The position numbers and the translations under genes are program-made. From contig DIZX01000012.1 of assembly GCA_002429485.1 (NCBI GenBank), positions 1,440 through 50,718 on the forward strand: 49,279 bases of DNA, read 5' to 3'. This DNA comes from Patescibacteria group bacterium UBA6017. GTDB taxonomy: Bacteria > Patescibacteriota > Saccharimonadia > UBA4664. Positions within the stretch are counted from its first letter, which is position 1; the number at the start of each line of letters is the position of its first letter. Shown one piece after another: positions 11,244-46,458 of this stretch. The notes beneath the pieces are model-generated. The model was not told the DNA's origin, made no database searches, and was given only the letters and a program-made list of their open reading frames with translations.

Positions 11244-11491
11244 TTCGCACACTACGGGGGACAGTCGTCTCCGACAAAATGGACAAGACGGTGGTTGTTG
11301 CGGTAAAAACCGTAAAAGAACACCCCATCTACCGCAAGAAGTACAAAGTAACTACCAAGTTCAAGGCTCACGATGAGAACAACGAGATTCACACTGGCGA
11401 CTTCGTTGAGATCACTGAGACCCGCCCAATCAGCCGCGACAAGCGCTGGGTTGTAGCCCGCAAGGTGGTTGCAGGGGAGATGGAGGCCTAA
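11240..11491 (+). CDS. rpsQ: 30S ribosomal protein S17
   Basis: [18 protein letters not shown]...HPIYRK...KAHDENNE...GD.V.I.ETRPIS..KRW. Confidence 0.97.
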
Positions 11492-11492
11492 G

Positions 11493-12813: not shown

Positions 12814-12998
12814 TGGCACGAGTAGCACTAGTTGTAAAAGCCGCGCGCAAGCCCAAGTTTTCGACGCGACACGTTAACCGCTGCCAGATCTGCGGTCGTC
12901 CAAGAGGTTTTATTCGTAAATTCGCGCTATGCCGCGTCTGCTTCCGTGAGTTCGCCTCGCGTGGTCAGATCCCCGGCGTTACTAAGGCGAGTTGGTAA
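12813..12998 (+). CDS. rpsN: 30S ribosomal protein S14, Zn-ribbon (type Z)
   Basis: 61 aa with CQICGRPRG...CRVCFRE. Confidence 0.96.
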
Positions 12999-28222: not shown

Positions 28223-28298
28223 AGGGGTGTAGCTCAGTTGGTAGAGCATCGGTCTCCAAAACCGAGTGTCGTAGGTTCGAGTCCTGCCACCCCTGCCA
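28223..28298 (+). tRNA. tRNA-Trp (anticodon CCA), CCA encoded
   Basis: Acceptor AGGGGTG/CACCCCT, anticodon stem TCGGT/ACCGA with loop CTCCAAA, T arm GTAGG-TTCGAGT-CCTGC, discriminator G. Confidence 0.92.
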
Positions 28299-28391
28299 GA
28301 TATATTATGGCTTCCTAGAGCCAAAAAAACGTACTACTTTTCGATATTATATTTACGCATCGGAATAATCCCTTCGCAAGGCCCTAAAATT

Positions 28392-28410
28392 GTTTGAGTC
28401 CTGTTACCCC
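28392..28410 (+). repeat. decayed direct copy of the tRNA-Trp T-loop/acceptor 3' segment
   Basis: GTTTGAGTCCTGTTACCCC against tRNA 28275-28293 GTTCGAGTCCTGCCACCCC is 16/19 identical. All three mismatches are C to T. It lies 94 nt after the tRNA. Confidence 0.6.
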
Positions 28411-28694
28411 ATTACCGAATTTTCTACACATTCTCACATGCAACAACATCTTCACTGACATCTTCGGAAAGCATTGCCTTATATATTGTGGTCGTCTACG
28501 ATATAGACACAACATAACAGTCATTCACCGAAGTTACCGGGCAAGTAGGGCGTAATTCCCTCGCTGTCGCGCAACTGTAAAGTCAGAAAACCGGTCGGGA
28601 ATGTTTTATCCATGTACTCTTCGCCGTAAAGAGTGACGGAAGGCTTCAAACCCCTCTGCGCTAGAACGACCGCTAGTACAAAGAGGGGATTTGT

Positions 28695-32803: not shown

Positions 32804-33219
32804 ATCATCAACTAGGCGAATTACAGCACCAAGTCGAAATTTCTCGTCCCGAGGAATTGGTTCTTGTGAGCACAGAAGGTGTCACGGTCTCTATAGTTAG
32901 CGAATCTATGGAAACTCAGCCACCGAGAGACGAAATCCCTGAAGGTACTTCCGTAAAAACAGAGGCCTCGCAGCAGGAATTTGAGAGTGATTCTCTCCCA
33001 GTCACACAATCAGATTGGATGGTGCCCGCGGCCCGTCCGGAAATCCTGGATTGGCCGTTCCTGGATATCCAGAGCCAAGCTAATGACGCCGTAGTCGCCG
33101 CGATCGAAGATGAGTCTGTCGGCGAATTAGCCGCGCCTAATGAACAACCGATTCCAAGGCGTGCAACAACCCGACCCGGGTCCTATGAGCTGGCTGCCAG
33201 CGGGCGGATTGCAGCATGA
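32800..33219 (+). CDS. 139-aa acidic hypothetical protein
   Basis: ATGA overlaps at both ends. E/D/S/Q-rich with no recognisable domain. Confidence 0.6.
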   Translation: MNHQLGELQHQVEISRPEELVLVSTEGVTVSIVSESMETQPPRDEIPEGTSVKTEASQQEFESDSLPVTQSDWMVPAARPEILDWPFLDIQSQANDAVVAAIEDESVGELAAPNEQPIPRRATTRPGSYELAASGRIAA

Positions 33220-35390
33220 AGCTCACCGGACAATATACCTTCATTCGCCTCAAACCTTCGCCCGAGACAATAACCGAGGGAGCGCTGGCGAAGCGCCACT
33301 TTGAGGCCACCAAGTCGCTCATGACCGCCTTTGCCGGATTACTCAACTCTAATCGAACGGCCGCAATTAGTCTCGAATTGGCAGCCAAAGAACAGAGCAT
33401 AAACTTCATTATCGGCTCCCCGGAAGAATGGGTCGAAGAAGTCACTCATCACGTTTATGCCGCCTTACCGGGAAGCGAGTTGGAAGTGCTCGACGAATGG
33501 ACTGTTTTTGATACCCTGGGAGATATAGCTGGGGCAAGTGTTCAGTTTAGCCCGCCAGAAGGGGAGCTGCGCTCAGCTGAGTTTGCTGGCAGTGATCCGC
33601 TCCAACCACTGCTAGAGATATTGCATAGCTTGCCCACCGGTAGCCGTCTGTCCCTTCAGCTCCTTCTGACGGGTGCTTTCGCCAAGGGCACACTCGGGGG
33701 AGCTCTCGCAGGTGCATTTCAAGATGCGGTAACTAGCGGCCTGCGCCAGGTCCTTATCGGACCACCGTCGGACCAAACTGCCACCGACAAACCAAGAAAC
33801 AAGCTCGATGATGCCCCCCTGCTCGCCAACCTGCGCTTAATTGCCCTAGCAAAATCAGAGCCCGAAGCTACGGACATCATCCGACGCGCCACGAGCGCCT
33901 ATCACGGGCTCACCCTGCCGGGCAAAACTAAACTGCGCTACCAAACGCCCCGACATCTCGACCCTTGGCTCAAAACAGCTCTTCTTCGTCAGTCCGATCC
34001 AAAAACCTCCTTCCGGCTCACACCAATGGAAGCCACGAACCTATACCATACGCCGCTCAATGTGCGTTCGTTCCCGAAGTTAGTTTCCATGGAGACAACG
34101 CGCCTGCCCATACCTCAAAACCTCTCCACCCAAGGCATCGTCATAGGCACCGGCGCGCATCGTAGTGGGGGGCAGCCAATTCACCTAGCCCCCGAAGACC
34201 GACTTCGCCACACCTACCTCATAGGCCAAACTGGCACCGGTAAATCCACTCTATTTCAGAACGCCATCCTGCAGGATATGGAAAACGGCGACGGCTGTTG
34301 CTTCATCGATCCGCACGGTGAAGTCATCGATTGGCTGCTGCCCCGGATTCCCGCCAACCGCGCTGCCGACGTTGTCCTGTTCGACCCTGGCGACCCTTCT
34401 GCCATCCTTGGCCTCAACCTTCTCGAGTGGCGTACTCCCCACGAGCGCGATCTGATAATTCAGGAGCTGATAGCGCTGTTCTATAAACTTTTCGACCCCG
34501 CCCGCACGGGCATTATTGGACCTCAATTCGAGCATTGGCTTCGCAACGCTGCGCTGACCATTACCGAACCAGCCGTCCGAGGTACGATTGTTGATATTCC
34601 GCGTCTCTTCACGGATAAAGCCTTTGCGAAGGCTGCCGTTGAACGATCTTCGCACGTCGCCGTCAAAGATTTTTGGAATAATCAAATGGCTGCCACCGCC
34701 GATTTCCACAAGTCCGAGATGCTCAACTATTTCACCTCCAAGTTCGGAAGCTTCCTCGGCAATTCCGTGATGTATCAAATTCTTTCGCAGCGCTCTAGCG
34801 CCTTCGACCTGCGTACCATCATGGACCGCCGCAAAATCCTGCTCGTCAACCTCTCGAAGGGCCGACTTGGCAGCCTCAATGCCCAACTACTGGGTACCCT
34901 CATCGTGACCAAAATTCAGATGGCCGCCATGAGCCGGGCCGACGTCCCGGCCGAAAACCGGCCACCATTCTATGTCTATATCGACGAGTTTCAGAATGTC
35001 GTTACCGATTCGTTCGCCGCTATGCTCTCAGAAGTCCGCAAGTATGGCGTCGGGCTGCACCTGGCGCATCAATACGTCGATCAACTCCCCGACAATATCA
35101 AGCAAGCCGTATTTGGCAATATTGGTACCATCATGGCTTACCGCCTTGGTTCTACTGACGCCAAGTGGCTCAGTGGCCATTTTGCCCCCCTCAGCATCGA
35201 TGACCTCACCAATATCCCGCCCTACCATTACCATATGAGAACCCTTGCCGACGGCCAACTTACCACTCCCTTTACGGTGAAAGCTCCGTATATTGAAACA
35301 ACCCCCCGCCCAGATGTTGAGCAAGCCATCCGCAGCCGTGTTAGAGACTTCGTGGAAAGCACTCATGCCGTTACGAATGCCCCAAAATGA
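33216..35390 (+). CDS. FtsK/HerA-superfamily P-loop ATPase (HerA/DUF87- or TraD/VirD4-like), soluble, with ~330-aa unknown N-terminal domain
   Basis: Walker A LIGQTGTGKST, then CCFIDPHGE, Walker B FYVYIDEFQNV, and VRKYGVGLHLAHQYVDQL...GNIGTIMAYRL, which is typical of the HerA/TraG-D_C type. No TM helices seen. Confidence 0.8.
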   Translation: MKLTGQYTFIRLKPSPETITEGALAKRHFEATKSLMTAFAGLLNSNRTAAISLELAAKEQSINFIIGSPEEWVEEVTHHVYAALPGSELEVLDEWTVFDTLGDIAGASVQFSPPEGELRSAEFAGSDPLQPLLEILHSLPTGSRLSLQLLLTGAFAKGTLGGALAGAFQDAVTSGLRQVLIGPPSDQTATDKPRNKLDDAPLLANLRLIALAKSEPEATDIIRRATSAYHGLTLPGKTKLRYQTPRHLDPWLKTALLRQSDPKTSFRLTPMEATNLYHTPLNVRSFPKLVSMETTRLPIPQNLSTQGIVIGTGAHRSGGQPIHLAPEDRLRHTYLIGQTGTGKSTLFQNAILQDMENGDGCCFIDPHGEVIDWLLPRIPANRAADVVLFDPGDPSAILGLNLLEWRTPHERDLIIQELIALFYKLFDPARTGIIGPQFEHWLRNAALTITEPAVRGTIVDIPRLFTDKAFAKAAVERSSHVAVKDFWNNQMAATADFHKSEMLNYFTSKFGSFLGNSVMYQILSQRSSAFDLRTIMDRRKILLVNLSKGRLGSLNAQLLGTLIVTKIQMAAMSRADVPAENRPPFYVYIDEFQNVVTDSFAAMLSEVRKYGVGLHLAHQYVDQLPDNIKQAVFGNIGTIMAYRLGSTDAKWLSGHFAPLSIDDLTNIPPYHYHMRTLADGQLTTPFTVKAPYIETTPRPDVEQAIRSRVRDFVESTHAVTNAPK

Positions 35391-35441
35391 GCGAGGGCAC
35401 TTTCTTGCAACCATAAGCAAGTTTGCAGTAAACTGTTCCCC

Positions 35442-36467
35442 ATGCAGCCTTTACTCTCAATTATTGTTATCGGTCTCAACCACAAAGTTGCACCCTTAGA
35501 AGTACGAGAAAAGGTCGTTGGCAGCGCTCCTTTTAAGCGAGCGGAACAAGCCTTCTACCCGAGCCTGATAAGCGAATTCGTCGGACTATCCACCTGCAAC
35601 CGTACTGAACTTTATGTCGTAACCGCCGCTCCTGACGAGGTTACGCGAGGGCTAGGTCAACTCTTTGGCTATGACTACGCCTACGTTTTAGCAGATGAGG
35701 AAGCAACCAACCATTTGTATAGCGTAGTATCGGGGCTTGATTCTATGATTCTTGGCGAATACGACATTGTCGCACAGGTAAAACAGGCATACTTTGCGGC
35801 GGCTCAAGCAAAGACTGTCGGACCGGTACTCCATCAGCTCTTTCAGCGAGCAATTCGGGCCAGCAAAGTGGTTAGGTCTTCAACCAATATTGGCACAGGC
35901 ATTACGTCACTAGCCCGGGCTGCCGTAGATCAAGCTAAAGTCAAAGTTGAAAATCTCAAAGACCAACCAGTCCTCATACTTGGAGCCGGAAGTATGGCGG
36001 AAAAAGTGGGAAAATACTTAGCAAAGGAAGGGGTGCGGGATATTACCTTTGCCAACCGAACCTATAGCCGCGCTGAGAAGCTGGCTTCCGAATATAAGGC
36101 TAATGCCATCCCGCTCGATGAGCTAGAAGCTGGCCTACTGGCAAGTACTGTCGTCATCTGCGCAACGGCTGCCCCTGACCAGGTGATAACACATAAAATG
36201 CTACAAGATACTATGACTGTAAGGCCGCTCCACTCGCTGCACATAATCGACCTTGCTGTACCCCGAGATGTTGAACCGAGTGCTGCAAGTATCGCTGGGG
36301 TACATTTGGATAATGTCGATACCCTCCAAAATCACCTCGATGATAATAAGCAAGAGAGAATTAAGGCGGTAGCCATGGCCCAATCGCTTATAGAACTTGA
36401 GTCACAGAAATTTTGGGAATGGAATGAGTCGCGAAATGCGAGGACTCAAATAAAAATCGTCGTCTAG
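35442..36467 (+). CDS. hemA: glutamyl-tRNA reductase-like protein, C-terminally short
   Basis: VIGLNHKVAPLEVREK, catalytic-Cys motif LSTCNRTELYV, SGLDSMILGEYDIVAQVKQAY, NAD-binding ILGAGSMAEKVGKYL, DLAVPRDVEP. It is 341 aa; E. coli HemA, recalled from memory, is about 418 aa. Confidence 0.85.
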   Translation: MQPLLSIIVIGLNHKVAPLEVREKVVGSAPFKRAEQAFYPSLISEFVGLSTCNRTELYVVTAAPDEVTRGLGQLFGYDYAYVLADEEATNHLYSVVSGLDSMILGEYDIVAQVKQAYFAAAQAKTVGPVLHQLFQRAIRASKVVRSSTNIGTGITSLARAAVDQAKVKVENLKDQPVLILGAGSMAEKVGKYLAKEGVRDITFANRTYSRAEKLASEYKANAIPLDELEAGLLASTVVICATAAPDQVITHKMLQDTMTVRPLHSLHIIDLAVPRDVEPSAASIAGVHLDNVDTLQNHLDDNKQERIKAVAMAQSLIELESQKFWEWNESRNARTQIKIVV

Positions 36468-36585
36468 ATTATACTGTCGTGAAAATAGCTTAGTGCCGGT
36501 GTAGCCCCGCACGACTTTATGCCAAGCAATATTGCGTTCATATCCGTCAAGCTTTAAAATAAACACAAGAATAATACGGCTATAC

Positions 36586-37293
36586 ATGGATTTGCGTCCT
36601 CCACAGCAGAATCGAGGCATTGTTCGAACCGCCGCACTCAAGGCGGGTACGGTTGTTGTTGTGATGGCTTTGATCTTTGCAGCGAGATCAGTGGGTGGGT
36701 TACGGGTGGCCAGCAGTGCATCTAGCCAACCATTGCCATCTGAAAGCTCATTACCTGCTAACAAAAGCCAAACTGCTACCGGCAATACTTCGGGATCAAC
36801 GTCACTCGGATCGCCTTCGCCTAGCGCATCCCCGACAAGCACGTCTTCAAATAAAACAAATACAACGACTTCGACGTCAACAACTAGCTCTGCTTCTCCA
36901 ACCCCCACGGCATCTACGACAGCTACTTTATCAACTCCAAAGCCAACGTCGACTCCAGCTCCAACCCCGACCCCTACCCCGTCTCCAACACCAACCGCCA
37001 CCTTTCGCGATGGGACTTACTCTGCCGTTGGCAGCTACGCGACCAACGGTTTCACCGAGAAGATTGGTATCTCGTTGACAATCTCTGGTGGCGTTATTAC
37101 TGCTACGAGCGCTACAAACATGGCAGTCAATCCCACCTCTAAAAATTACCAAAATGACTTCATTGCAAACTACAAACCATATGTAATTGGTAGGAGCATA
37201 TCGTCGTTATCTTTAGGTAAGGTTGCAACATCGTCGCTGACCCCAAACGGCTTCAATGCTGCTACTTCTTCAATCAAGCTACAGGCCAACTAA
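36586..37293 (+). CDS. membrane-anchored protein with Ser/Thr/Pro linker and C-terminal FMN-binding-like domain
   Basis: I moved the start to ATG 36586. TM anchor AGTVVVVMALIFAA, an STP-rich linker of about 110 aa, and DGTYSAVGSY...ISLTISGGVITA...GKVATSSLT, which resembles the FMN_bind fold with its flavinylated Thr motif. Confidence 0.6.
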   Translation: MDLRPPQQNRGIVRTAALKAGTVVVVMALIFAARSVGGLRVASSASSQPLPSESSLPANKSQTATGNTSGSTSLGSPSPSASPTSTSSNKTNTTTSTSTTSSASPTPTASTTATLSTPKPTSTPAPTPTPTPSPTPTATFRDGTYSAVGSYATNGFTEKIGISLTISGGVITATSATNMAVNPTSKNYQNDFIANYKPYVIGRSISSLSLGKVATSSLTPNGFNAATSSIKLQAN

Positions 37294-37297
37294 GTCT

Positions 37298-38194
37298 ATG
37301 AGTGAGGCTTCGTTAATATTACGGTTTGAAGCAATCGGAACCACCTGGCAAATTGATTGTTACGATCTTCCTGCGTCTCTCAGACCTGAGATACTTGAGG
37401 CAGATATTATGAAGCGGATTTCAGAGTATGGCATGACGTACTCGCGCTTTCGGGATGATTCATTAGTCGCTCAAATGTCGCGCGAAGCGGGACGATATAC
37501 GCTACCGTCGGATAGCAAGCTGATATTCAACTTTTATGAGCAGCTTTACCGGGTCACGGACGGCAAAGTTACGCCGCTCATCGGCCAAGTTCTGGTAGAT
37601 TCCGGGTATGATGCGGCCTATTCGCTCGTACCCCAAGAGATTATCCAGGCCGCCCCGTTATGGGAGGACAGCTTCGAATATGCCGACTCAACCCTAACTC
37701 TGAAACAACCCACTTTGCTAGACATTGGTGCCGCCGGAAAAGGCTACCTCGTTGATATAATCGGCGAAATGTTAACCGAAGTAGCCATTGCTAGCTACTG
37801 CATCGATGCCGGTGGTGACATTTTGGTGCGCGGCATGAGCGCGGCACCATTCCGAATCGGTCTTGAGCACCCGCATGACGATAGCCAAGTTATTGGCGTA
37901 ATACCTCTCGGTGACGGCAGTATCTGTGCCTCAGCCAGCAATCGGCGTGCTTGGGGCGATCTTCATCACATTATAGACCCTCACACAGCCGAGCCGGTAC
38001 GTTCCATTATCGCCACTTGGGTGGTCGCTTCATCCGCTATGATTGCCGATGGCCTAGCTACGGCCTTATTCTTCACCCCCGCTGCAAAACTTAAGCAGGT
38101 TTTCGATTTTGAATATATCCTAGTTAAACAAGATATGACTTTTGAATTTTCTTCGGGGCTGAATGCTGAGATATTTACGGGAGCTACGCCATGA
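37298..38194 (+). CDS. apbE: FAD:protein FMN transferase (ApbE family)
   Basis: I moved the start to ATG 37298. ...FRDDSLV...LLDIGAAGKGYLVD...CIDAGGDIL...ASASNRRAW...HIIDPHT..P. Confidence 0.85.
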   Translation: MSEASLILRFEAIGTTWQIDCYDLPASLRPEILEADIMKRISEYGMTYSRFRDDSLVAQMSREAGRYTLPSDSKLIFNFYEQLYRVTDGKVTPLIGQVLVDSGYDAAYSLVPQEIIQAAPLWEDSFEYADSTLTLKQPTLLDIGAAGKGYLVDIIGEMLTEVAIASYCIDAGGDILVRGMSAAPFRIGLEHPHDDSQVIGVIPLGDGSICASASNRRAWGDLHHIIDPHTAEPVRSIIATWVVASSAMIADGLATALFFTPAAKLKQVFDFEYILVKQDMTFEFSSGLNAEIFTGATP

Positions 38195-39702
38195 ATGTGA
38201 TCGATAAATTCCTGAATTCCTACACTATGTATCGGGTGATACTTTACGGGCTCGGCCTAATTTCGCTGGTAGCTCTAGTTCTCAGCGCGATCGGTATTTT
38301 GGACTTTCCGCTCCTAGCCGTTGCGACGTCACTAGCATTAGTCGTTGGGGTGGGCTTCATCGCACACACTATATTTGCCAAACTGTTTCATTCTGCGACG
38401 GGAGCCGAAACATGGCTTATAACTTCACTTATATTATTTCTTATTCTAAAACCGGCGCAAACCAAAGCCGAATACGCAGTGCTTGTCGTGGTAACCGTTC
38501 TCGCTATGGCGTCAAAGTATGTCATTGCCTTCGCCAATCGCCATATCTTCAACCCGGTGGCTATCGCTTTGGTGGTTCTCGGTCTGCTCGGCAGCGGGGA
38601 AGTCTATTGGTGGGTAGGCAGCAAAGCCATGCTGCCAGTTGCGCTTCTGATCGGACTGGTTGTGCTCCGCAAAACCCGTCGTTTCCATATGCTCTGGCCT
38701 TTCGTAGTGGTCGCTCTTATAACCCATGCGTTTATGCCGGGCGTGCCTCACGACCCAATTGCGGTAGTGCGCGATCTTATTATCTCGGGACCGCTAGTAT
38801 TTTTTGCGACCATCATGCTAACCGAGCCAGCTACTGCGCCACCAACGCAAGTTTTACGAATAGCATACTCGGCGCTTGTAGGCTTGCTCTACGGATGGAG
38901 CTTTCATATCGGTCCCATCTTCTCAACCCCAGAGGTCGCATTAGTGACGGGTAATATATTCTCGTATGCGGTCAGCTCAAAGCGTCGCCAGCGGATGCGA
39001 CTCGAGCGTTGCACCTTGCAAGCTGCTGGCGTTTATGAATTTGCTTTTACGCCACTGGACGGCAAATTGGCTTACAAACCCGGCCAATATCTAGAGTGGA
39101 CATTACCTCACAAGCGCCACGATAGCCGGGGCAATCGTCGCTACTTTACGATTGCCTCATCACCCACCGAAACCGAGATCAAACTGGCTGCCAGAATAGA
39201 CACTGAACACTCTAGTACGTTCAAGAAAGCTCTGCTGGACATGAAGCCCGGGGACGAGATATGGGCGTCGCAACTAGGTGGCGATTTTCGCTTGTCTCGT
39301 GATAAGGGGGAAAAGCTAGTCTTCATCGCTGGTGGAATCGGGATAACTCCGTTTCGAAGCATGGTCCAGTCAATAGTCGACCAAGGGCAACGCCGAGACA
39401 TTACCTTGCTCTACACCTCTCTTGCTGCTGATGGATTCGCCTATTGGCCGCTCTTTAATCAGGCCGTCGCTAGCGGGGTAAAGCCAATTTACGTCATTAC
39501 GGGTCCAACCATACCAGAAGGATGGACGGGTAAATCTGGCTTTATTACTTCCGATATGATTAAGGCAGAAGTTCCCGATTATGCCCACGCGATGTTTTAT
39601 CTGTCAGGACCAAATGTGATGGTTGTGAATTACAAAAAGGTACTACGCTCGCTCGGTGTACCGAGCCGAAGTATCAAAACAGATTATTTCCCCGGGTTCT
39701 AA
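38191..39702 (+). CDS. fusion of an NqrB/RnfD-like polytopic membrane domain with an FNR-type FAD/NAD(P)H oxidoreductase domain
   Basis: About 9 TM segments including IMLTEPATAPP (an NqrB/RnfD-like TEP.T.P motif). Then PGQYLEW, RYFTIASSP (RxYS-type FAD motif), FIAGGIGITPF (NAD(P)H motif) and YLSGP. ATGA overlap with apbE. Confidence 0.75.
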   Translation: MNVIDKFLNSYTMYRVILYGLGLISLVALVLSAIGILDFPLLAVATSLALVVGVGFIAHTIFAKLFHSATGAETWLITSLILFLILKPAQTKAEYAVLVVVTVLAMASKYVIAFANRHIFNPVAIALVVLGLLGSGEVYWWVGSKAMLPVALLIGLVVLRKTRRFHMLWPFVVVALITHAFMPGVPHDPIAVVRDLIISGPLVFFATIMLTEPATAPPTQVLRIAYSALVGLLYGWSFHIGPIFSTPEVALVTGNIFSYAVSSKRRQRMRLERCTLQAAGVYEFAFTPLDGKLAYKPGQYLEWTLPHKRHDSRGNRRYFTIASSPTETEIKLAARIDTEHSSTFKKALLDMKPGDEIWASQLGGDFRLSRDKGEKLVFIAGGIGITPFRSMVQSIVDQGQRRDITLLYTSLAADGFAYWPLFNQAVASGVKPIYVITGPTIPEGWTGKSGFITSDMIKAEVPDYAHAMFYLSGPNVMVVNYKKVLRSLGVPSRSIKTDYFPGF

Positions 39703-39887
39703 TCAATCAATTCAAATCAGATGATGGGGTGCCTACGCCCGTAAGAACCGACTACTCTACTGACCGAGATTTCATCTAGCCTAGACATAGTGATCCGGAA
39801 GTCCGACTACTACCCTGGCCAATGCCATTTTGACAGACGCTCGCACTTAAGCGTAAGCTCTATCTAAATAACTAAGGGTACCCCTCT

Positions 39888-40541
39888 ATGCGCAAAATAT
39901 CATACAAACTAACTATCGCAGCCAGCATGACCCTGTTTGCTCTCAGCGGTGCCTCCGTCCTGGCGGTGAGCCCTAACGCCAATGCCCATGCCACCAACGT
40001 CGGCAATCCAACCTCCCCGGCGGTCGAAGCCACCGGCAGGCCGGCGCCCACCGATAACCCAACCGATGTGAGATCGAAAGGTTCCACTCATCTAGCCGAT
40101 GCCAAGCTCAAAGCCTGCCAGAAGCGCGAAACAGCCATCAACAACATCATGGCACGCACTATTGACCGCTCCAACAAGCAAATCAAGGTCTTTGATACCA
40201 TTGCCACTCGCACCGAGGCATTTTACACCAGCAAAGGCAAGACCCTGTCCGGATACGCCGCGCTCGTATCGGCCGTCAGTACCGCCAAGGCCAAGGCCAC
40301 TACGGACCTCGCCGCTATGAAAACCACCGCCGACCTCAAATGTGATGGTACCGACCCCAAGGGCGCCGCCAGCGCCTTCAAGGCCAACCTGAAGCTCGAA
40401 ATTGCCGACCTCAAAGCCTACAAGACCGCCGTTAAGAACCTTATCGTTGGAGTGAAATCGGTCCAGGGCACGGACAGCTCATCCCCTAAGGCGAGCACCT
40501 CACCCACGGCCAGCCCCACTACTAACCAGGGAGGTAACTAG
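39888..40541 (+). CDS. secreted helical protein with Ser/Thr/Pro tail
   Basis: Signal peptide MRKISYKLTIAASMTLFALSGASVLA, a helical Ala/Lys-rich body, and an STP-rich C-terminus. Confidence 0.65.
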   Translation: MRKISYKLTIAASMTLFALSGASVLAVSPNANAHATNVGNPTSPAVEATGRPAPTDNPTDVRSKGSTHLADAKLKACQKRETAINNIMARTIDRSNKQIKVFDTIATRTEAFYTSKGKTLSGYAALVSAVSTAKAKATTDLAAMKTTADLKCDGTDPKGAASAFKANLKLEIADLKAYKTAVKNLIVGVKSVQGTDSSSPKASTSPTASPTTNQGGN

Positions 40542-40543
40542 TA

Positions 40544-40816
40544 ATGAAGAAGCAATCCGGTTTCGCAGTACTTGAAATCCTCCTGTTGGTTGTCGTCGTA
40601 GCCATCCTTGGCTATACCGCCGTCACCTTCATCGGGCACCAACAGGCAGCCACGGACACCACCGGCTCAACCGCCGCCACAGTTACCGTTCCGGCTGCCC
40701 CACAGATCAACTCAACCGCTGATTTAACTGCCGCCGAAAGCGCAGTGGACCAAGTCAACGTTGATGCGGGCACCGCGGACAGCTCACAGCTTGATTCCGA
40801 GCTAGCCAACTTCTAA
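40544..40816 (+). CDS. prepilin-type N-terminal cleavage/methylation-domain protein (pilin/pseudopilin-like)
   Basis: MKKQSG|FAVLEILLLVVVVAILGY is a class III signal: G, then F, with E at +5 and a hydrophobic helix. Confidence 0.75.
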   Translation: MKKQSGFAVLEILLLVVVVAILGYTAVTFIGHQQAATDTTGSTAATVTVPAAPQINSTADLTAAESAVDQVNVDAGTADSSQLDSELANF

Positions 40817-40840
40817 CAAAAAATAGAGGACCAAATATAA

Positions 40841-40865
40841 AGAGGGTTAGCTGCCCTCTCTTTTT
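40841..40865. terminator. intrinsic terminator (probably bidirectional) between the pilin gene and the convergent HKD gene
   Basis: AGAGGG-ttagctg-CCCTCT followed by cTTTTT. The upstream side is A/T-rich. Confidence 0.7.
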
Positions 40866-40886
40866 GCGCTGCTATAAACTAGCCGT

Positions 40887-41366
40887 CTACATAAATTTAC
40901 TGATCTTAATAAACTTCAGCATTTCAGTTGCTAAATTAGCTGATTTAACCCTTCTCATAACCTCGCAGCTCGAGCTCTGGGACAAGATGTTGAGGCTTCC
41001 CTCGTATAGAATAGAGCCATCAATGATCGCTAGCTTCCTGTGATGGTTATCGGTAAATAGAACTTGGACGCCAAGCCCCTGCAGTAAACCAATTGCGGTA
41101 GCGGCCTCCGCCGCCATCCGCCGGTCGTGCTCCTTCGGATCACGCGTATTGATTACTATATGAACCCCTCTTTTCGTAAGCCTACGAAATGAGGGGTAAA
41201 GCGCATTCATGCGCTTATGGGTTATAAAAGGGCTTTCGATAATTAACTCACGTTTACACTTAACTAAGTCATTCAAGAATGCTGGGTAAAATGACTGTTC
41301 GTCATATAATCTAGATGTAAGCAGAGGCGTCGGGGTAGAGCGCTTGAAGGGCCGATGGAAGATCAT
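40887..41366 (-). CDS. short single-HKD phospholipase-D-family nuclease (Nuc-like)
   Basis: 159 aa with a perfect HxK(x4)D(x6)GSxN motif: HRKLAIIDGSILYEGSLN. GAGGAG lies 8 nt upstream. ATGA overlap with the upstream small ORF. Confidence 0.85.
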   Translation of the reverse strand: MIFHRPFKRSTPTPLLTSRLYDEQSFYPAFLNDLVKCKRELIIESPFITHKRMNALYPSFRRLTKRGVHIVINTRDPKEHDRRMAAEAATAIGLLQGLGVQVLFTDNHHRKLAIIDGSILYEGSLNILSQSSSCEVMRRVKSANLATEMLKFIKISKFM

Positions 41367-41545
41367 GAGTTTGGCTCCTCATCCTCAAACAGCGCCCGAA
41401 TTTCATCTGGATCACACTCAACGTCATCGTCAAAAGTTTGATTCCCGGACTGCCACCCCTGCCATATGAAACCAAACCCCAAAATGCCCCTCAAAATAGG
41501 GTATTTTGGGGTTTGGTTTTGACCTATGGGTGGCAGGACAATCAA
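41363..41545 (-). CDS. small WQGWQSGNQTFDD-motif ORF, copy 1 (start uncertain)
   Basis: ...GFGFIWQGWQSGNQTFDDDVECDPDEIRALFEDEEPNS*. Its stop overlaps the HKD ATG. The N-terminal part as drawn runs through a 17-bp hairpin. In-frame TTG codons nearer the motif are alternative starts. Confidence 0.45.
   Translation of the reverse strand: MIVLPPIGQNQTPKYPILRGILGFGFIWQGWQSGNQTFDDDVECDPDEIRALFEDEEPNS
41424..41465 (+). repeat. 42-bp core, copy 1
   Basis: TCATCGTCAAAAGTTTGATTCCCGGACTGCCACCCCTGCCAT is identical over 42 nt to 46364-46405. Its last part, CTGCCACCCCTGCCA, equals the tRNA-Trp 3' end. Confidence 0.95.
41469..41519. other. 17-bp perfect hairpin between head-to-head cores
   Basis: AAACCAAACCCCAAAAT (41469-41485), a 17-nt loop, ATTTTGGGGTTTGGTTT (41503-41519). 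A-rich 5' arm and T-rich 3' arm, so it is terminator-like in both directions. Confidence 0.8.
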
Positions 41546-41552
41546 ACTTTTT
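41526..41552 (-). repeat. truncated inverted copy of the core
   Basis: The reverse complement AAAAAGTTTGATTGTCCTGCCACCCAT matches the copy-2 type core AAAAGTTTGATT(ctc)GTCCTGCCACCC with a 3-nt deletion. On the plus strand it encodes ...YGWQDNQTF... Confidence 0.75.
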
Positions 41553-41728
41553 CATTCATCGGCCTCCACAATTTTGAAGTCATCTACCCCCCTGGGGCCA
41601 TGTTTGTTATGCTAAACCTGTTGCCTAACTGGCGTTGGGTACTAAATTCACGCGCTAGTGAGCCTAGCCGATACAGGCCACCACGCAGACTACTAGGAGA
41701 ATTCGATATCAGACATACTCTCAAAAAT

Positions 41729-43534
41729 ATGCTTTCAACATCTATTGCAGTGGCTAGGTCTCTGGTGCAGACTGCTTTACCAGAAAATGGGTCTGAATAT
41801 AAGACATTTTCCATAAAGGAAGTTACTGCGCAAGTGGCGACTCTCCTGATAGTACTGGTCGGCTTCATAACCTTCTCTTCTGGTCTTTCTAACTATTTCG
41901 TTGGTGACGACCAGGGTCAGATCACTACAAACACGCCAGTTCATAGTATTGCCAATATTGGAATGTTCTTTAATGGAGGCACCTTCTACACGGGTCAAGC
42001 GCTGCACCCGCTTGTTGGAGCCTATTATCGCCCGCTCATGACTACGGTTTACTCACTCGTGTACACGTTATTTGGCCCTCAACCGGGGGCATTCCACTTA
42101 GTTCAACTATGCCTACAAATTGCTTGTTCTATAATGCTTTTTCTAGTCTTCAAATACTTTTTTAGACCAAATTTGGCTTTTATCCTCTCGCTTATATTTC
42201 TAGTCCACCCTATAAACAGCCAGGCTGTATTTGCAATCGCTTCCATGCAGGAGCCGTTATTCTTCTTATTCGGAGTAACAGCCCTATGGTCCGCAATTAG
42301 GTTCCGGGGTAAATCCTTATGGTATTTGCTACTAACAGTTTTGCTATTAATCTTGTCGATGCTATCGAAAGAAACGGGTGTTCTATTTTTAGTGATTACC
42401 TTGATATACGTATACCATGCAGACCGAAAGCGCTTCTACCCACTACTGGGGTTATCGGCGCTCCCCACTATCATGTATATAACGCTAAAAATACACGCCG
42501 TAGGAGTCGCAGTTAACCCGCATACCGCTCCGATCGATAACCTTAGTCTGTTGGAGCGAATGATAAATGTCCCATCCATGGTTCTCTTCTACTTTACGAA
42601 GTTTATTTATCCCTTGCCACTCGCTCATAATTACTACTGGGTTTACAAAACAATTACATTCCAGCATGTTATTTTGCCACTCATAGTCGACCTCGTAATT
42701 GCTGCCGGAATCACCTATTTGGCGGTCGTATTGCGAAAAAAGTCACCGAGGCAGCACTTCCCGTTATTCATGTTCTTCGCTATCTGGTTACTTCTAGGCG
42801 TGCTTTTGCATATGCAGATTATCCCTCTCGATGTGACCGTCAGCGAGACTTGGTTCTACTTTTCTATGGCTGGGCTTTTGGGGCTGATCGGCGTGCTACT
42901 GAATGCGTTCATGCCTCGTGTTTCAAAGGGGTGGCCAATCGCAGTCGTTGTCATTGTCATTTGTCTTCTCGGATTTCGGACATGGGAGCGCGGCTTTGAT
43001 TGGAAAGATGTATATTCCCTTGCTTACCGGGATATTGCAGTCTCAAAAGATGATTACGTATCGCTATCAAATATCGCATATGGCTTGGATTCACAAGGTG
43101 AATACTCTCAAGCCAAGCCTTATGTGTTACGCGCTGTTAACATTTATCCATCTTTCAATAACTACAACACGCTCGGAATTACGCTAGCTGGGCTACATGA
43201 CTACCCCGGAGCTAGAGATGCATATTTAAAAGCACTGGGCTATAACTATTATGAGAATATTTTATGCAACTTGGGCCAGATTTTGACGGTATATGGTGAT
43301 TATGATGCGAATAAACGGATACTTGCCGTCGGGCTTCGGACGTACCCAAGGAATAGCTTGTTGTGGTCAGATCTAGCGATCCTAGAATATTCCAACGGCT
43401 ATACCTCCAATGCCAACCTTGCCGTAGCAAAGGCGGTGCAGTACGGTAACCCATACCCGGAAATATACAAAAAAATACTAGGTAATCAGCCTCTTGATCT
43501 AAATATCGACCCTAAGCCTAGTAGGGGATTTTGA
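41729..43534 (+). CDS. GT-C-fold glycosyltransferase (PMT/ArnT/TMTC-like) with C-terminal TPR repeats
   Basis: Polytopic N-terminal domain with an early-loop DD motif (NYFVGDDQGQITTN) and a C-terminal TPR region (YSQAKPYVLRAVNIYP...). The start is uncertain: ATG 41729 or 41600. The track ORF is open from 41438 through the inverted core. Confidence 0.7.
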   Translation: MLSTSIAVARSLVQTALPENGSEYKTFSIKEVTAQVATLLIVLVGFITFSSGLSNYFVGDDQGQITTNTPVHSIANIGMFFNGGTFYTGQALHPLVGAYYRPLMTTVYSLVYTLFGPQPGAFHLVQLCLQIACSIMLFLVFKYFFRPNLAFILSLIFLVHPINSQAVFAIASMQEPLFFLFGVTALWSAIRFRGKSLWYLLLTVLLLILSMLSKETGVLFLVITLIYVYHADRKRFYPLLGLSALPTIMYITLKIHAVGVAVNPHTAPIDNLSLLERMINVPSMVLFYFTKFIYPLPLAHNYYWVYKTITFQHVILPLIVDLVIAAGITYLAVVLRKKSPRQHFPLFMFFAIWLLLGVLLHMQIIPLDVTVSETWFYFSMAGLLGLIGVLLNAFMPRVSKGWPIAVVVIVICLLGFRTWERGFDWKDVYSLAYRDIAVSKDDYVSLSNIAYGLDSQGEYSQAKPYVLRAVNIYPSFNNYNTLGITLAGLHDYPGARDAYLKALGYNYYENILCNLGQILTVYGDYDANKRILAVGLRTYPRNSLLWSDLAILEYSNGYTSNANLAVAKAVQYGNPYPEIYKKILGNQPLDLNIDPKPSRGF

Positions 43535-43635
43535 ATTGAGAATGAATAGCTGGGTTATGCGGGTGAGTAGCTCTTGGTCGTTCATTCGGATACATAGCCT
43601 TGATTAAACGTGCAGGCATCAGAAACCGCATAGTT

Positions 43636-44115
43636 CTATAGAAAATCACTTATCCGAAGAAAGGCTACCATCTCACTCGCAAGTTGTGCTGATTCTAATC
43701 TTCTCATAACCTCGTAGCTTGAGCTCTGGGACAAGATGTTGAGACTACCCTCATATAGAATTTAGCCATCAATAATCGCTAGCTTTCTATGATGGTTACC
43801 CGTGAATAGCACTACGGCTCCAAGCTCTTGAATTAAACCAATTGCGGTAGCGGCTTCAGCCGCCATCCGCCAATCGTGCTCCTTCGGATCTCGTGTATTG
43901 ATTACTATACGAACCCCTCTTTTGGTAAGCCTACGAAATGAGGGGTAAAGCGCATTCATGCGCTTATGGGTTATAAAAGGGCTCTCAATAATTAATTCTC
44001 GCTTACACTTTGCTAAGTCATTCATGAACGCTGGGTAAAATGACCGTTCGTCATATAATTTAGATGTGAGTAGGGGAGTCGGGTCAGGTCGTTTGAAGAG
44101 CTTCTTGAAGATCAT
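43636..44115 (-). pseudogene. HKD/PLD-family nuclease paralog with in-frame TAA inside the HKD motif
   Basis: Same 480-nt length as 40887-41366 and closely similar throughout. Codon 118 (43762-43764) is TAA where copy 1 has TCT (Ser). The frame continues ILYEGSLNILSQSSSYEVMRRLESAQLASEM... to a TAG at 43636. Confidence 0.8.
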
Positions 44116-44261
44116 AAGTTCTGATCCTCATCTTCAAACAGCGCCCGGATTTCGTTTGGATCACACTTAATCTCATCGTCAAAAGTTTGATTCTCGTCCT
44201 GCCACCCCTGCCAGCACTTATTTGAGGCTCTGTAGAGCCTTTTTTGATATACTGATAACAT
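44112..44261 (-). CDS. small WQGWQ-motif ORF, copy 2
   Basis: MLSVYQKRLYRASNKCWQGWQDENQTFDDEIKCDPNEIRALFEDEDQNL*. GGAG lies 9 nt before ATG 44261; ATG 44276 is an alternative. Its stop overlaps the ATG of the HKD pseudogene. Confidence 0.5.
   Translation of the reverse strand: MLSVYQKRLYRASNKCWQGWQDENQTFDDEIKCDPNEIRALFEDEDQNL
44173..44214 (+). repeat. core, copy 2 (closest to tRNA-Trp)
   Basis: TCATCGTCAAAAGTTTGATTCTCGTCCTGCCACCCCTGCCAG. Positions 44191-44214 are 22/24 identical to tRNA-Trp 28276-28299, with a 19-nt exact run at 44196-44214. Confidence 0.95.
44225..44245 (+). terminator. plus-strand intrinsic-terminator-like hairpin 10 nt after core 2
   Basis: AGGCTC-tgta-GAGCCT followed by TTTTT. 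Confidence 0.5.
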
Positions 44262-44315
44262 AGATTCTTTCTCCATGAGTAGATTTCCTATACGTAACTG
44301 GGTAAACTTAGAGCA

Positions 44316-44723
44316 ATGAACAAACCAATCTCTGAGCTTGTCGGTACACAAATCGCCGATATTATATGCGACGAACCATCTAAAAATTGGCTCTTTAAAT
44401 TTGATTCAGGGAGCGAATTTAGAATCGAATCGCTTTGGCGAATTTCAAACGACAAAGAAGTGTTACTTACTGACACAGATCATGAACAGAAATTTGGTCT
44501 TCCAGCACCCGTCAATGCGATGGTCGAGGCCAAACAATTGCTCGGTGGCAAAATCACGAAAGCTTTACTAACGCCCGTTGGTGACGTACACCTAACGTTC
44601 AGTAACGGGAACTGTCTTGAGATCCTCATTTGGTCGGCAGGCTATGAGTCATGGACATTGAATGCTGGCAAAATATTGATAGTTGCTCAAGGTGGTGGGA
44701 CTATAACTCAATTTGGCGAATAG
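44316..44723 (+). CDS. hypothetical protein (135 aa)
   Basis: Clean ORF with a beta-rich looking sequence. No family recognised. It is convergent with small ORF copy 3. Confidence 0.55.
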   Translation: MNKPISELVGTQIADIICDEPSKNWLFKFDSGSEFRIESLWRISNDKEVLLTDTDHEQKFGLPAPVNAMVEAKQLLGGKITKALLTPVGDVHLTFSNGNCLEILIWSAGYESWTLNAGKILIVAQGGGTITQFGE

Positions 44724-44754
44724 GGTCGTTTTAGGTAAGAGCGTATATAACAAA

Positions 44755-44901
44755 CTAATCTCTCTCCTCATCTAGAACTAATTTAATTTCCTCAACGTCA
44801 AAATCAAACTCATCGTCAAATGTTTGATTCCCGGACTGCAGCCCCTGCCAGCACTTATTTAAGGCTCTACGGAGCTTTTTTCGTATCTTAGTATTAGTCA
44901 A
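44755..44901 (-). CDS. small WQGWQ-motif ORF, copy 3 (degenerate, no downstream partner)
   Basis: Manual translation from TTG 44901: (M)TNTKIRKKLRRALNKCWQGLQSGNQTFDDEFDFDVEEIKLVLDEERD*. W to L change in the motif, no RBS and no cargo gene, so it may be a relic. Confidence 0.3.
   Translation of the reverse strand: MTNTKIRKKLRRALNKCWQGLQSGNQTFDDEFDFDVEEIKLVLDEERD
44810..44851 (+). repeat. core, copy 3 (3 mismatches)
   Basis: TCATCGTCAAATGTTTGATTCCCGGACTGCAGCCCCTGCCAG. It shares about 30 further nt of right flank (GCACTTATTT.AGGCTCT..GAGC.TTTTT) with copy 2. Confidence 0.9.
44862..44881 (+). terminator. weak plus-strand terminator-like hairpin after core 3
   Basis: GCTC-tacg-GAGC plus TTTTTT. 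It is homologous to the hairpin after core 2. Confidence 0.35.
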
Positions 44902-44910
44902 CTTGATACG

Positions 44911-45504
44911 TTGTCAAAATTAGAGCGTGTCTTGCCAAATGAGGCATATCCTGGTAATATAGGTCAATTCGTTCAAAGAATGCGTTTATCGGTGCGCCTC
45001 ACCGATCGGACCCAAGGAGTGGCTATGCAGATCAGCGTAGATACACAAGGTATTGAAGACTTCCTCGCGAAGAACGGGGACACCAACCGCGACGATTATG
45101 ACTACCGGACGCCAATGACGGTCGTCACGCCGGCGCATGTCTTCGCTCGCAAGCTCGTACAGGCTGCTACTACCGCCATCACCCAGCTCGGAGCGCTGAG
45201 CGTCTATATCGAGTCAGTTGAGCTCTTCTTCGCGCCGGAGCACCTCCGGAAATCGTTCAGCCCACGTTTCAAGCTCACCGTCACGATCCCTCGCACGACC
45301 CAGACTCTGACGGTCTTCGGTCCCAGCACCTCGAAGTGCTATGCCCTGCCCTATGCCTCGGATCCCTTCCCGGGTCTCGATTTCATCCAGGTGATGGTCG
45401 GGGACGTCCGCCGGGAGCTTCATCGCGAAATCGAGATGCTTCGCGCCAACCTCGACCTGCTCGATGAGCCGCTTGCCTCTCCCAAGCAAGACATCGCCGT
45501 CTAG
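44911..45504 (+). CDS. hypothetical protein (197 aa), visibly more GC-rich than its surroundings
   Basis: TTG start. No recognisable domain. A GC-rich hairpin (CCCCGAC-tcctt-GTCGGGG) follows downstream. Confidence 0.5.
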   Translation: MSKLERVLPNEAYPGNIGQFVQRMRLSVRLTDRTQGVAMQISVDTQGIEDFLAKNGDTNRDDYDYRTPMTVVTPAHVFARKLVQAATTAITQLGALSVYIESVELFFAPEHLRKSFSPRFKLTVTIPRTTQTLTVFGPSTSKCYALPYASDPFPGLDFIQVMVGDVRRELHREIEMLRANLDLLDEPLASPKQDIAV

Positions 45505-45655
45505 TAACCACAGCGGCGCCGCCCAACTCACCCAACCCCGCCCCTGACGAGAGTCCCCGACTCCTTGTCGGGGGCGATCGTCTTCCCTGGGGTAGGACAT
45601 ATACGACAATCATCTCTTAGGTTCGATACGCTCTACCAAACAAAACCAAACTCAG

Positions 45656-46288
45656 TTATTCAACCGCATCAATAATCTCAAAGTCATTATCGTTGAATAT
45701 AACGGCCTGAGAGTCTTTTAGCTTAATCAGCTTGTCTTGATCGGCCCGCGCTTCTACAGCCACCATTACTTCGTTAAATTCCGCGTTGTCGACGTGCGGT
45801 ATGATCGTGTAGGGCGCGAGTTTCAGTCCCTCTTCGATCACCTCCTCGGCAAATTCGGGCTCGTCCGCCGCTTCTAAGTTAATCCCGCCAAGCGATGCTC
45901 CCGCCACCAATGCGCCGGCGCTATCACCGCCGTACACAATACCGTTTTTCAACAACTCCTGGATAATGGATTCGAACCCGCTTCTACGCATTTCGTATCT
46001 GAGCATGAAGGTATTACCGCCCCCCGCCCAAATAAGGTCGTATCGTGAGAGAGTTTGTTTGAGGGAGGCAGAGTCATCGAACTCTCTCAGATCTACTACC
46101 GTAACCTTCATGCCAAGTGACTCAAAGAGGGCAACGCGTTTGTCGATGATAAAATTTCGCGCGCGATCGGAGTAGTAGTCTTTGGCATTCGGAACAAGCG
46201 CAACGGAAACATCTGCCAAAGGCTTGCCGATGAGTTCGGCAAGGTCATCGGGAGTTGGGATGTCAATCGATGATAGATATAGTTTCAT
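45656..46288 (-). CDS. peptidase S51 family (dipeptidase E-like)
   Basis: I moved the start to ATG 46288 (MKLYLSS...). ...DLIWAGGGNTFMLRYEMR...GIVYGGDSAGALVAG (nucleophile Ser in G-D-S-A-G) and a later ...IIPHVDN His. Confidence 0.8.
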   Translation of the reverse strand: MKLYLSSIDIPTPDDLAELIGKPLADVSVALVPNAKDYYSDRARNFIIDKRVALFESLGMKVTVVDLREFDDSASLKQTLSRYDLIWAGGGNTFMLRYEMRRSGFESIIQELLKNGIVYGGDSAGALVAGASLGGINLEAADEPEFAEEVIEEGLKLAPYTIIPHVDNAEFNEVMVAVEARADQDKLIKLKDSQAVIFNDNDFEIIDAVE

Positions 46289-46290
46289 AA

Positions 46291-46458
46291 TTACCACTTT
46301 ACCCTGTAATCGTCACGATGTTCTAGTACTTCCCTAACATCTTCCACTTCAAAATCCCAATTATCATCGTCAAAAGTTTGATTCCCGGACTGCCACCCCT
46401 GCCATGAAATCATCCGTTTGTCAAGTCGCGTCTTCGGGCGCGATTTTGTTGTGTTCAC
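46291..46458 (-). CDS. small WQGWQ-motif ORF, copy 4
   Basis: Manual translation from GTG 46458 (AAGGAG 5 nt upstream): (M)NTTKSRPKTRLDKRMISWQGWQSGNQTFDDDNWDFEVEDVREVLEHRDDYRVKW*. The stop is 2 nt before the S51 peptidase ATG. It is below the ORF-track cutoff. Confidence 0.5.
   Translation of the reverse strand: MNTTKSRPKTRLDKRMISWQGWQSGNQTFDDDNWDFEVEDVREVLEHRDDYRVKW
46364..46405 (+). repeat. 42-bp core, copy 4
   Basis: Identical to 41424-41465 over exactly 42 nt, with unrelated sequence on both sides. Confidence 0.95.
46426..46450 (+). terminator. plus-strand intrinsic-terminator-like hairpin 21 nt after core 4
   Basis: TCGCGTC-ttcg-GGCGCGA (7 bp including one G-U pair, TTCG tetraloop) followed by TTTTgTT. 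Confidence 0.5.

Follow-up and report, generated by a model that had tools for sequence, protein, structure and literature searches.

A repeated tRNA-Trp-derived DNA site with a coding acidic tail probably marks junctions of tandemly accreted cassettes in Saccharibacteria

A stretch of 49,279 nucleotides from Patescibacteria group bacterium UBA6017 (GTDB lineage Saccharimonadia; assembly GCA_002429485.1, contig DIZX01000012.1, positions 1,440 to 50,718 of the forward strand; hereafter the window) carries four copies of a short core repeat, c1 to c4, each read through on the minus strand by a small open reading frame (ORF). The core matches the 3′ end of the tRNA-Trp gene of the same window, and we consider it probable that the cores are attR-like junctions of cassettes or islands accreted in tandem at tRNA-Trp, each with a junction-spanning micro-ORF. 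The repeated module has three parts. The first is a tRNA-derived DNA site, made up of 15–18 nt of the tRNA-Trp end, a variable spacer and a T-loop-like block. The second, on the cassette side, is an element-encoded acidic tail (D.D..E-I-R-.-L-L-D/E) under protein-level selection, and the third is an outer flank, usually a hairpin with a T-run, the reverse complement of which gives the basic N-terminus of the small ORF and sometimes its start codon.

A scan with a 38-nt core pattern, allowing up to three mismatches and with 100 shuffles as control, gave four plus-strand matches (41427–41464, 44176–44213, 44813–44850 and 46367–46404), where the shuffles lead one to expect none. The core reads TCATCGTCAAAAGTTTGATTCCCGGACTGCCACCCCTGCCA on the plus strand, and its four direct copies lie within 41.4–46.4 kb. 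Compared over 42 nt, c1 (41424–41465) and c4 (46364–46405) are 100% identical, and c2 (44173–44214) and c3 (44810–44851) are each 90% identical to c1 and c4. The tRNA-Trp (CCA) gene, found by ARAGORN and Rfam (71.4 bits), is located at 28223–28298 on the plus strand and ends in ...GTCCTGCCACCCCTGCCA. In the core, WQGWQ is encoded by TGGCAGGGGTGGCAG, which matches this 3′ end exactly in reverse complement, CCA included; the WQGWQ region is thereby the antisense of the T-stem, acceptor strand and CCA of tRNA-Trp. The sequence TGGCAGGGGTGGCA has five matches in the window against 0.32 expected by chance, and the fifth, an exact match at 28285–28298 on the minus strand, falls on the end of the tRNA-Trp gene itself. 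Counted from the complement of CCA, identity to the local tRNA extends over 15 nt in c1 (ending at 41464), 18 nt in c2 (ending at 44213), only 9 nt in c3, where TGG has become CTG, and 15 nt in c4. Each of the four cores repeats the tRNA-Trp end in direct orientation, 13.2–18.1 kb downstream of that gene. The tRNA-derived part is followed, after a variable spacer of ~5 nt, by the block GGAATCAAACTTTTGA (antisense N-Q-T-F-D), similar to the antisense of a T-loop, which in the tRNA reads GGACTCGAACC.

The boundary of homology is sharp. In 21 aligned copies conservation begins at TGG, and a duplication that includes c1 and c2 (40939–41464 and 43688–44213, 86%) stops exactly at the core TGG. Beside c1, an inverted partial core (GGGTGGCAGGAC-AATCAAACTTTT, 41527–41552, plus strand) forms the right arm of an imperfect palindrome of ~130 nt (41424–41552), in which c1 and the inverted fragment flank a hairpin with 21-nt arms, and which could have been left by recombination between inverted sites. 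An earlier note, made from the letters of the window alone, had counted this fragment as a leader of the GT-C/TPR gene. Its peptide YGWQDNQTF is indeed in frame with that gene, inside a long TTG-started ORF (41438–43534), but the leader role was not supported, as the fragment is a partial inverted core within a palindrome and its in-frame position is most likely incidental. The further claim that one module precedes four different genes on both strands depended on this copy and was likewise not supported.

A terminator scan revealed a terminator-like hairpin with a T-run after each core on the plus (tRNA-sense) strand. After c1 this is the 21-nt-arm hairpin (inverted repeat I1, 41469–41519; 41489–41511 in the terminator scan), and the others were located at 44224–44241 after c2, at 44861–44878 after c3, and at 46423–46446 after c4 (AAGTCGCGTCTTCGGGCGCGATTT, in the distal flank, Z). 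Those of c2 and c3 look like the hairpin that at present lies 3′ of the real tRNA-Trp (GGCTTCCTAGAGCC). Homologues of the Z hairpin follow tRNA-Trp-like ends in four other loci (L004, L007, L012 and L104), and the Z hairpin after c4 is probably the ancestral tRNA-Trp terminator.

To collect relatives of the module, protein and DNA pattern searches were combined with a profile search across 1.84 billion representatives. The profile matched 149 small proteins at E ≤ 1e-3, and we put the family at ~150–200 members; all genome matches carrying labels belong to Saccharibacteria/Saccharimonadales. Seven independent loci share one geometry (the window, L007, L010, L012, L013/L015, L022, and L107, which has a partial tRNA at the contig end): the tRNA is always on the strand opposite to the small ORF and on its downstream side, 2.3–18 kb off. 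The distance is 3.4 kb in L007, 3.3 kb in L010, 3.9 kb in L012, 9.0 kb in L013/L015, and 2.3, 3.3 and 4.3 kb for the three copies of L022. With a single-copy tRNA in a genome of ~1 Mb, such an arrangement cannot be due to chance.

The L022 locus carries tRNA-Gln(ttg) instead of tRNA-Trp, and its three copies read WLGRQ, the antisense of the tRNA-Gln 3′ end CTGCCGCCCCAGCCA; the identity covers 15–17 nt plus two contiguous flank nucleotides, with more flank bases in common (AATAATT). In L007 the identity to the local tRNA end is 12+4 nt. Across the family (n = 184), 110 members start with WQG or WQE (Trp type) and 59 with WLG or WLE (Gln type). Therefore, the first five residues are set by the target tRNA and not by protein function. 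Further traces of tRNA ends were seen in two of these loci. At 13791–13925 of L012, 22 nt of the local tRNA-Trp 3′ end are duplicated beside a Z-type hairpin, ~134 nt from the tRNA, as a minimal att-like scar, and a further decayed module was located at L012:11165. L007 has more tRNA-Trp 3′ fragments at 925–985, one with the T-arm of a different tRNA-Trp allele (AGGTTCGAGTCCTGCCA), and a decayed module at ~940–1077 (…TWQGCMSLKITSEVLEKIDIQEIYELL…); this site has been hit repeatedly.

The intact tRNA, the direct repeats of its 3′ end, the sharp TGG boundary and the native flank after the last copy together point to repeated insertion at the tRNA gene. The intact tRNA would correspond to attL and each core to an attR-type junction, produced by repeated site-specific insertion. 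The region from 28.3 to 46.4 kb would then be a tandem stack of acquired cassettes, with the last core followed by the native flank.

Several observations weigh against this interpretation. Domain scans found no integrase or recombinase in any of the ~15 loci examined, and specifically no recombinase domain in 27.5–46.5 kb of the window or in the islands of L007, L010, L012, L013 and L022. Two recombinase genes met near related loci did not serve: the integrase of L016 (19482–20303) is that of Tn916, 100% identical to a Streptococcus protein, and the serine recombinase of L110 (18261–19796) is inserted at a site unrelated to the core. The core lacks the dyad symmetry usual at recombinase core sites, the best value in the core region being 45–50%. 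The metagenomes and genomes scanned yielded neither an empty site nor an excised circle, and no presence/absence polymorphism either; the near-identical contigs L001–L003 show no polymorphism. In L012 and L013 the core equals the local tRNA-Trp, with its acceptor stem of the AGGGGAG type, over 8–9 nt only, and no tRNA was found within the available sequence of L009, L016, L018, L106 and L108. Two genes of the first interval of the window, ApbE and the NAD_binding_1 oxidoreductase, sit outside the array in L013 and L018; rearrangements have thus occurred, and that interval cannot be read as a single clean element. For the ORF part of the interpretation, an in-frame start is absent from two of 17 copies (L005 and L008) and lies 2–65 codons upstream in the others. 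Given the lack of a recombinase, of an empty site and of a circle, and the mismatch in L012 and L013, many copies may be fossil junctions. The recombinase may act in trans, or may have been lost.

Other candidates for the moving agent or its traces were considered and set aside. No common family emerged among the uncharacterised proteins beside the tRNAs that might have been a hidden recombinase. Following the Z hairpin in search of an empty site turned up only another tRNA-Trp-like fragment with Z. A phage or plasmid origin was not supported, as IMG/VR, INPHARED and PLSDB gave chance matches only and no relatives. None of the papers searched describes the family, and no such elements in Saccharibacteria turned up in them.

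If a recombinase does act in trans or has escaped recognition, the arrays could represent a cassette-capture system of Saccharibacteria that is not an integron: cassettes lacking a recombinase would be stacked at tRNA-Trp or tRNA-Gln through the bipartite site, and a site-spanning acidic micro-protein would control recombination or expression. We regard so specific a system as doubtful. The HKD or Mrr nuclease often found beside the site would be its candidate recombinase, which is speculative.

It is unlikely that the arrays were instead built by homologous recombination, with the ~33-nt site plus tail and the tRNA gene as anchors and with cassettes swapped or stacked after natural transformation, no dedicated recombinase being involved. 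Such a process would agree with the lack of a recombinase in every locus, with a core devoid of dyad symmetry, with the gene order near the arrays, which varies between genomes, and with the inverted partial core and palindrome beside c1. However, 15–18 nt of identity is short for the process to be efficient, homology that stops abruptly at the complement of CCA and Gln-type cores beside tRNA-Gln form the pattern of site-specific insertion at tRNA ends, and the identity of the repeat to the tRNA 3′ end would be left unexplained. For the reshuffling of arrays, homologous recombination between modules is a live alternative.

The four minus-strand small ORFs read as quoted in the earlier note. 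That of c1 (41363–41464 from W to stop, ...WQGWQSGNQTFDDDVECDPDEIRALFEDEEPNS) has no convincing start codon, the only upstream starts being TTG codons at 6, 10 and 27 codons. That of c2 (44112–44261, 49 aa, MLSVYQKRLYRASNKCWQGWQDENQTFDDEIKCDPNEIRALFEDEDQNL, profile-search member P0003) has an ATG start with a Shine-Dalgarno sequence. The c3 ORF (44755–44901, ...CWQGLQSGNQTFDDEFDFDVEEIKLVLDEERD) starts with TTG, and the description of this copy as degenerate and without cargo was borne out, as the change of TGG to CTG gives WQGLQ and no co-directional gene follows. The c4 ORF (46291–46458, 55 aa, (GTG)NTTKSRPKTRLDKRMISWQGWQSGNQTFDDDNWDFEVEDVREVLEHRDDYRVKW, P0001) has the AAGGAG ribosome-binding site ahead of its GTG start. 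Equally present were the ATGA overlaps of c1 with an HKD nuclease gene (40887–41366) and of c2 with a broken HKD copy (43762–44115 plus 43636–43734), and the stop of c4 lies 2 nt ahead of the ATG of the S51 peptidase gene. Stop–start overlaps or gaps of ≤2 nt were found with HKD genes (c1, c2 and L005), with Mrr_cat genes (L016, L018 and L108), with the S51 peptidase gene (c4) and with a radical SAM gene (L106). Thus, a real and repeated module is read through in one frame and is probably translationally coupled to unrelated downstream genes, as had been proposed.

Upstream of the W, the N-termini of the small ORFs are unconserved, non-homologous and rich in Lys and Arg. The terminator-like hairpin after each core accounts for this composition, and the suspicion that the basic N-termini are by-products of plus-strand hairpin and T-run structures was thereby supported. 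Two other ways of starting or expressing the ORFs were rejected. In c1 and L005 the only ATG sits in the −1 frame, which ends at TTTTGA, and a programmed +1 frameshift at UUU UGA C was considered; TTTTGA is not kept in L007 (TTCTGA), L012 (TTTTTCAG) or L022c (TTCGAT). A sigma-54 promoter (TGGCA..) had the wrong spacing, as judged by reading alone.

Codon analysis of the 17 copies with DNA sequence revealed that the module is bipartite. In codons 1–5 the synonymous difference pS was 0.21 and the nonsynonymous difference pN 0.17 (pN/pS 0.80), and in codons 6–11 the values were 0.28 and 0.22 (0.79), against 0.83 and 0.39 (0.47) in the tail. Codons 1–11 (WQGWQxxNQTF) are conserved as DNA, with synonymous sites nearly frozen: the commonest residue of a column was written with the same codon in 70 of 73 cases in block 2, compared with 95 of 162 in the tail (Fisher p = 4e-10). 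Between pairs of copies, tails differed by 0.48, 0.31 and 0.71 at codon positions 1, 2 and 3, and the conserved Arg of the tail appears in a single column as CGG, AGG, CGT, CGA and CGC. No stop interrupts the frame of the tail, against 2–39 in each of the other five. Among the 11 copies that were found by DNA pattern or tRNA-end scan and not by ORF calling, nine keep the tail open through the EIR motif; decayed tails were seen at L005:6599 and L107:10756. Because the core codons are frozen and the tail varies as coding sequence does, we conclude that a ~33-nt DNA site is followed by a truly coding acidic tail, D.D..EIR.LL, and the selection on the tail suggests that the peptide itself also matters. 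Of the three roles offered earlier, translation of a DNA-level recombination site comes closest for WQGWQxxNQTF, but does not cover the acidic tail with its coding selection.

These data bear on two opposite readings of the small ORF. According to the first, it belongs to a free-standing family of small proteins, such as an acidic antitoxin, an immunity protein or a DNA mimic, and the likeness to tRNA-Trp is a coincidence. The number of profile matches, the coding selection on the tail, the acidic C-terminus with a weak helix prediction at residues 38–46, and the ATGA-type overlaps with two unrelated nuclease families, HKD and Mrr_cat, could be read in this way. We nevertheless find it very unlikely, as WQGWQ equals the local tRNA end exactly and WLGRQ stands beside tRNA-Gln, synonymous sites of codons 1–11 are frozen, the N-termini are non-homologous with starts at scattered distances or absent, and downstream partners are diverse or missing. 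The peptide has no relative in Pfam-A, NCBIfam, PADLOC or PDB, and its AF2 model is of low confidence (pLDDT 60), with two short helices only. The earlier suggestion of an antitoxin or DNA mimic dedicated to the HKD nuclease was not supported, given the occurrence of the same module before HKD, Mrr_cat, S51, radical SAM, BrnT/BrnA or inositol phosphatase genes, or alone. Nor does the family resemble a toxin–antitoxin pair, in that no toxin partner is constant (HKD, Mrr_cat, S51, radical SAM or none), the N-termini are non-homologous and a folded DNA-binding N-terminal domain is lacking.

According to the second, nothing in the module is coding, and it is an att site whose arms are conserved and over which ORFs occur incidentally. 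The DNA-like behaviour of codons 1–11, the two copies lacking an in-frame start and the unconvincing starts of c1, the decayed tails, and N-termini that are complements of terminators all speak in its favour. Against it stand the order of variation in the tail (third above first above second position), five Arg codons at one column, a tail frame free of stops when the other five frames are not, the recurrence of stop–start coupling, and the tails left open in nine of the 11 copies that ORF calling had not supplied; on balance this reading is highly improbable.

Barely credible is an antisense-tRNA function at the RNA level, either a retrovirus-like primer-binding site or a T-box-like sensor of uncharged tRNA, since, although the 18-nt complementarity of c2 from the CCA complement has the format of a retroviral primer-binding site and the L107 island has a reverse transcriptase (RT)–trypsin gene, RNA pairing does not require copies tied in position and orientation to a tRNA gene, as they are in seven loci, the window and most loci lack an RT, the window has no LTR (long terminal repeat)-like structure, and there is no Rfam match, T-box included, and no trp or gln gene downstream. 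A known RNA family or riboswitch was rejected for the module more generally, as no leader, T-box or riboswitch of Rfam 15 matched it even at E ≤ 5. The suggestion of a Trp leader peptide was not supported either: trp genes are lacking downstream, and both UGG codons of WQGWQ stem from the complements of the CCA end and acceptor stem. Probably a defence-type RT, the RT–trypsin fusion of L107 (RVT_1 + Trypsin, 11182–12816) has the module on one side and a tRNA-Gln-like end on the other.

To return to the cores as junctions at tRNA genes, the micro-ORF that spans each of them reads inward and is often stop–start coupled to the first cassette gene. Its most likely role would be to carry ribosomes from outside transcripts into cargo that otherwise appears promoterless and poor in ribosome-binding sites, and the tail peptide may have an added role. 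Translational coupling of this kind, as with the short ORFs of integron attI1, would be the most economical function of the micro-ORF.

The cores divide the window downstream of the tRNA into four intervals, examined with Pfam, NCBIfam and PADLOC. Interval 1, from the tRNA to c1 (28299–41465), is a mosaic accessory block with an AdoCbl riboswitch, a 790-aa orphan ORF, a ClpB-like AAA ATPase, a HerA/VirD4-like ATPase, GlutR, ApbE, an oxidoreductase and the HKD nuclease. Interval 2 (41466–44214) holds the GT-C/TPR glycosyltransferase gene (plus strand), the HKD pseudogene and the c2 tail; interval 3, a cassette of 637 bp (44215–44851), holds a DUF6188 gene (plus) and the c3 tail; and interval 4, a cassette of 1.55 kb (44852–46405), holds a 197-aa orphan ORF (plus), the S51 peptidase gene (minus) and the c4 tail. 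The cargo of c1, an HKD (PLD-family) nuclease gene on the minus strand (40887–41366, PLDc_2 2.5e-10), has an intact HxK(x)4D...GSxN motif and is similar to the nuclease domains of MkoC, MkoB and DrmC. The cargo of c2 is the minus-strand HKD pseudogene (43636–44115), split into its two ORFs, and that of c4 is the minus-strand Peptidase S51 gene (45656–46288, Peptidase_S51 6.3e-27).

Cargo of the same kind fills the islands of the other loci, where HKD and Mrr nucleases, an RHS toxin, PIN-MazE, a Zeta toxin, HigB/A, BrnT/A, an OLD-like nuclease, APH and the RT–trypsin fusion were found. Between cores, L005 has HigB/A, L107 has BrnT/A and the RT–trypsin fusion, and L022 has APH with orphan ORFs; L012 carries PIN-MazE and APH, L010 the RHS toxin, and L013 a multi-gene metabolic set with the OLD-like nuclease.

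The G + C content of the window is 52–58% across 28.8–35.4 kb against about 47–50% elsewhere, with stretches of 42–45% as well. An AdoCbl-II (cobalamin) riboswitch (28525–28601, 53.9 bits) lies just downstream of tRNA-Trp, and the 790-aa ORF after it (28695–31067) has no Pfam, NCBIfam or PADLOC match, making it an unusual riboswitch-controlled orphan. The adjoining segment of 52–58% G + C (31064–35390) encodes a ClpB-like AAA_2 ATPase (PADLOC PDC-M37B/DolB-like), a 139-aa orphan ORF and a 724-aa HerA/VirD4/mad8-like ATPase, and looks like a defence or conjugation-derived block. In interval 4, the 197-aa ORF (44911–45504) has 61% G + C amid 42–49%, matches no family and is probably foreign.

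The 724-aa ATPase (33216–35390) is homologous to the coupling proteins of type IV secretion systems (T4SS) of L016, L018, L108 and L104. A T4SS-like cluster follows the module in L016, L018 and L108. Since homologues of its TrbL are so widespread (1227 matches at E ≤ 1e-30), the T4SS cluster may be chromosomal and not an integrative and conjugative element (ICE). A walk along the cluster for an element end was unsuccessful, as in L109–L112 it ends with an HKD gene and without the module. At that end, one sample has a large serine recombinase (Resolvase + Recombinase, 511 aa) beside HKD that is absent from three others; comparison of L110 (18261–19796) with L109 (from 18350 onward) places the strain breakpoint at TTGGTGCACC, which is unrelated to the tRNA-type core. 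The gene identical to Tn916 Int lies beside the Saccharibacteria T4SS cluster in L016 (19482–20303) and was also found in a second Saccharibacteria metagenome-assembled genome (L069, 8482–9303), which has only that transposon end in common with L016. Either Tn916 is present in Saccharibacteria or these assemblies are chimeric.

The mobile elements of Saccharibacteria/Saccharimonadales are poorly charted, and a peptide family without a Pfam or NCBIfam model can here be read as marking the borders of cassettes at tRNA-Trp and tRNA-Gln. Its motif, W[QL]G..xxN.TF...EIR.LL, offers a cheap means of finding and delimiting accessory and defence islands in the reduced genomes of this group. For small-protein discovery the module also carries a caution, in that half of a 'conserved peptide' can be an antisense tRNA end.

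Islands and integrative elements at tRNA 3′ ends form tandem accretion arrays, and integrase-less forms mobilizable in cis are known, such as the cis-mobilizable elements (CIMEs) of the ICESt1/ICESt3 family. Williams in 2002 reportedly classified the sublocations within tRNA genes. The window array is like such islands in its intact tRNA at the proximal end, its distal direct repeats of 15–18 nt at the junctions, its tandem units, the terminator after the reconstituted tRNA end, and the accessory, toxin or defence cargo of mosaic and atypical base composition expected of a genomic island. It differs in that no integrase is encoded there or in the ~15 loci, in its very small units (0.64–2.7 kb), in the T-loop-like DNA block and the coding tail that continue the repeat across the junction, and in its Saccharibacteria hosts.

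In integrons, the attI1 short ORFs ORF-11 and ORF-18 enhance translation of the first cassette by coupling. Small and often single-gene cassettes, a repeated site, a micro-ORF over the site that is coupled to the next gene, and toxin–antitoxin or defence cargo are common to both systems. Unlike integrons, the window array has no IntI at its head, which is a tRNA gene, and no imperfect palindromes of the attC type, consistent with the low dyad symmetry of the core; its cassette genes lie in both orientations, and its site comes from a tRNA 3′ end.

Two further systems are comparable in part. Mycobacteriophages such as BPs have attP inside the repressor gene, and SSV-type integrases are split by attP; there as here, an ORF spans the attachment site, so that the protein encoded after integration differs at one end from that encoded after excision. 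In our case, however, it is the N-terminus and start codon of a ~35-residue conserved peptide that change and not the C-terminus of a known regulator, and there are no phage genes and no IMG/VR relative. The pdif modules and IMEX elements, which borrow the host XerC/D recombinase, are likewise small cassettes that encode no recombinase, have short conserved sites at their borders and carry toxin–antitoxin or accessory genes, whereas the site in the window is not dif-like, having no two-arm dyad, and equals a tRNA end. As judged from these comparisons, the closest known systems are the tandem islands targeted to tRNA genes and their integrase-less derivatives, with integron arrays and their attI micro-ORFs close in function.

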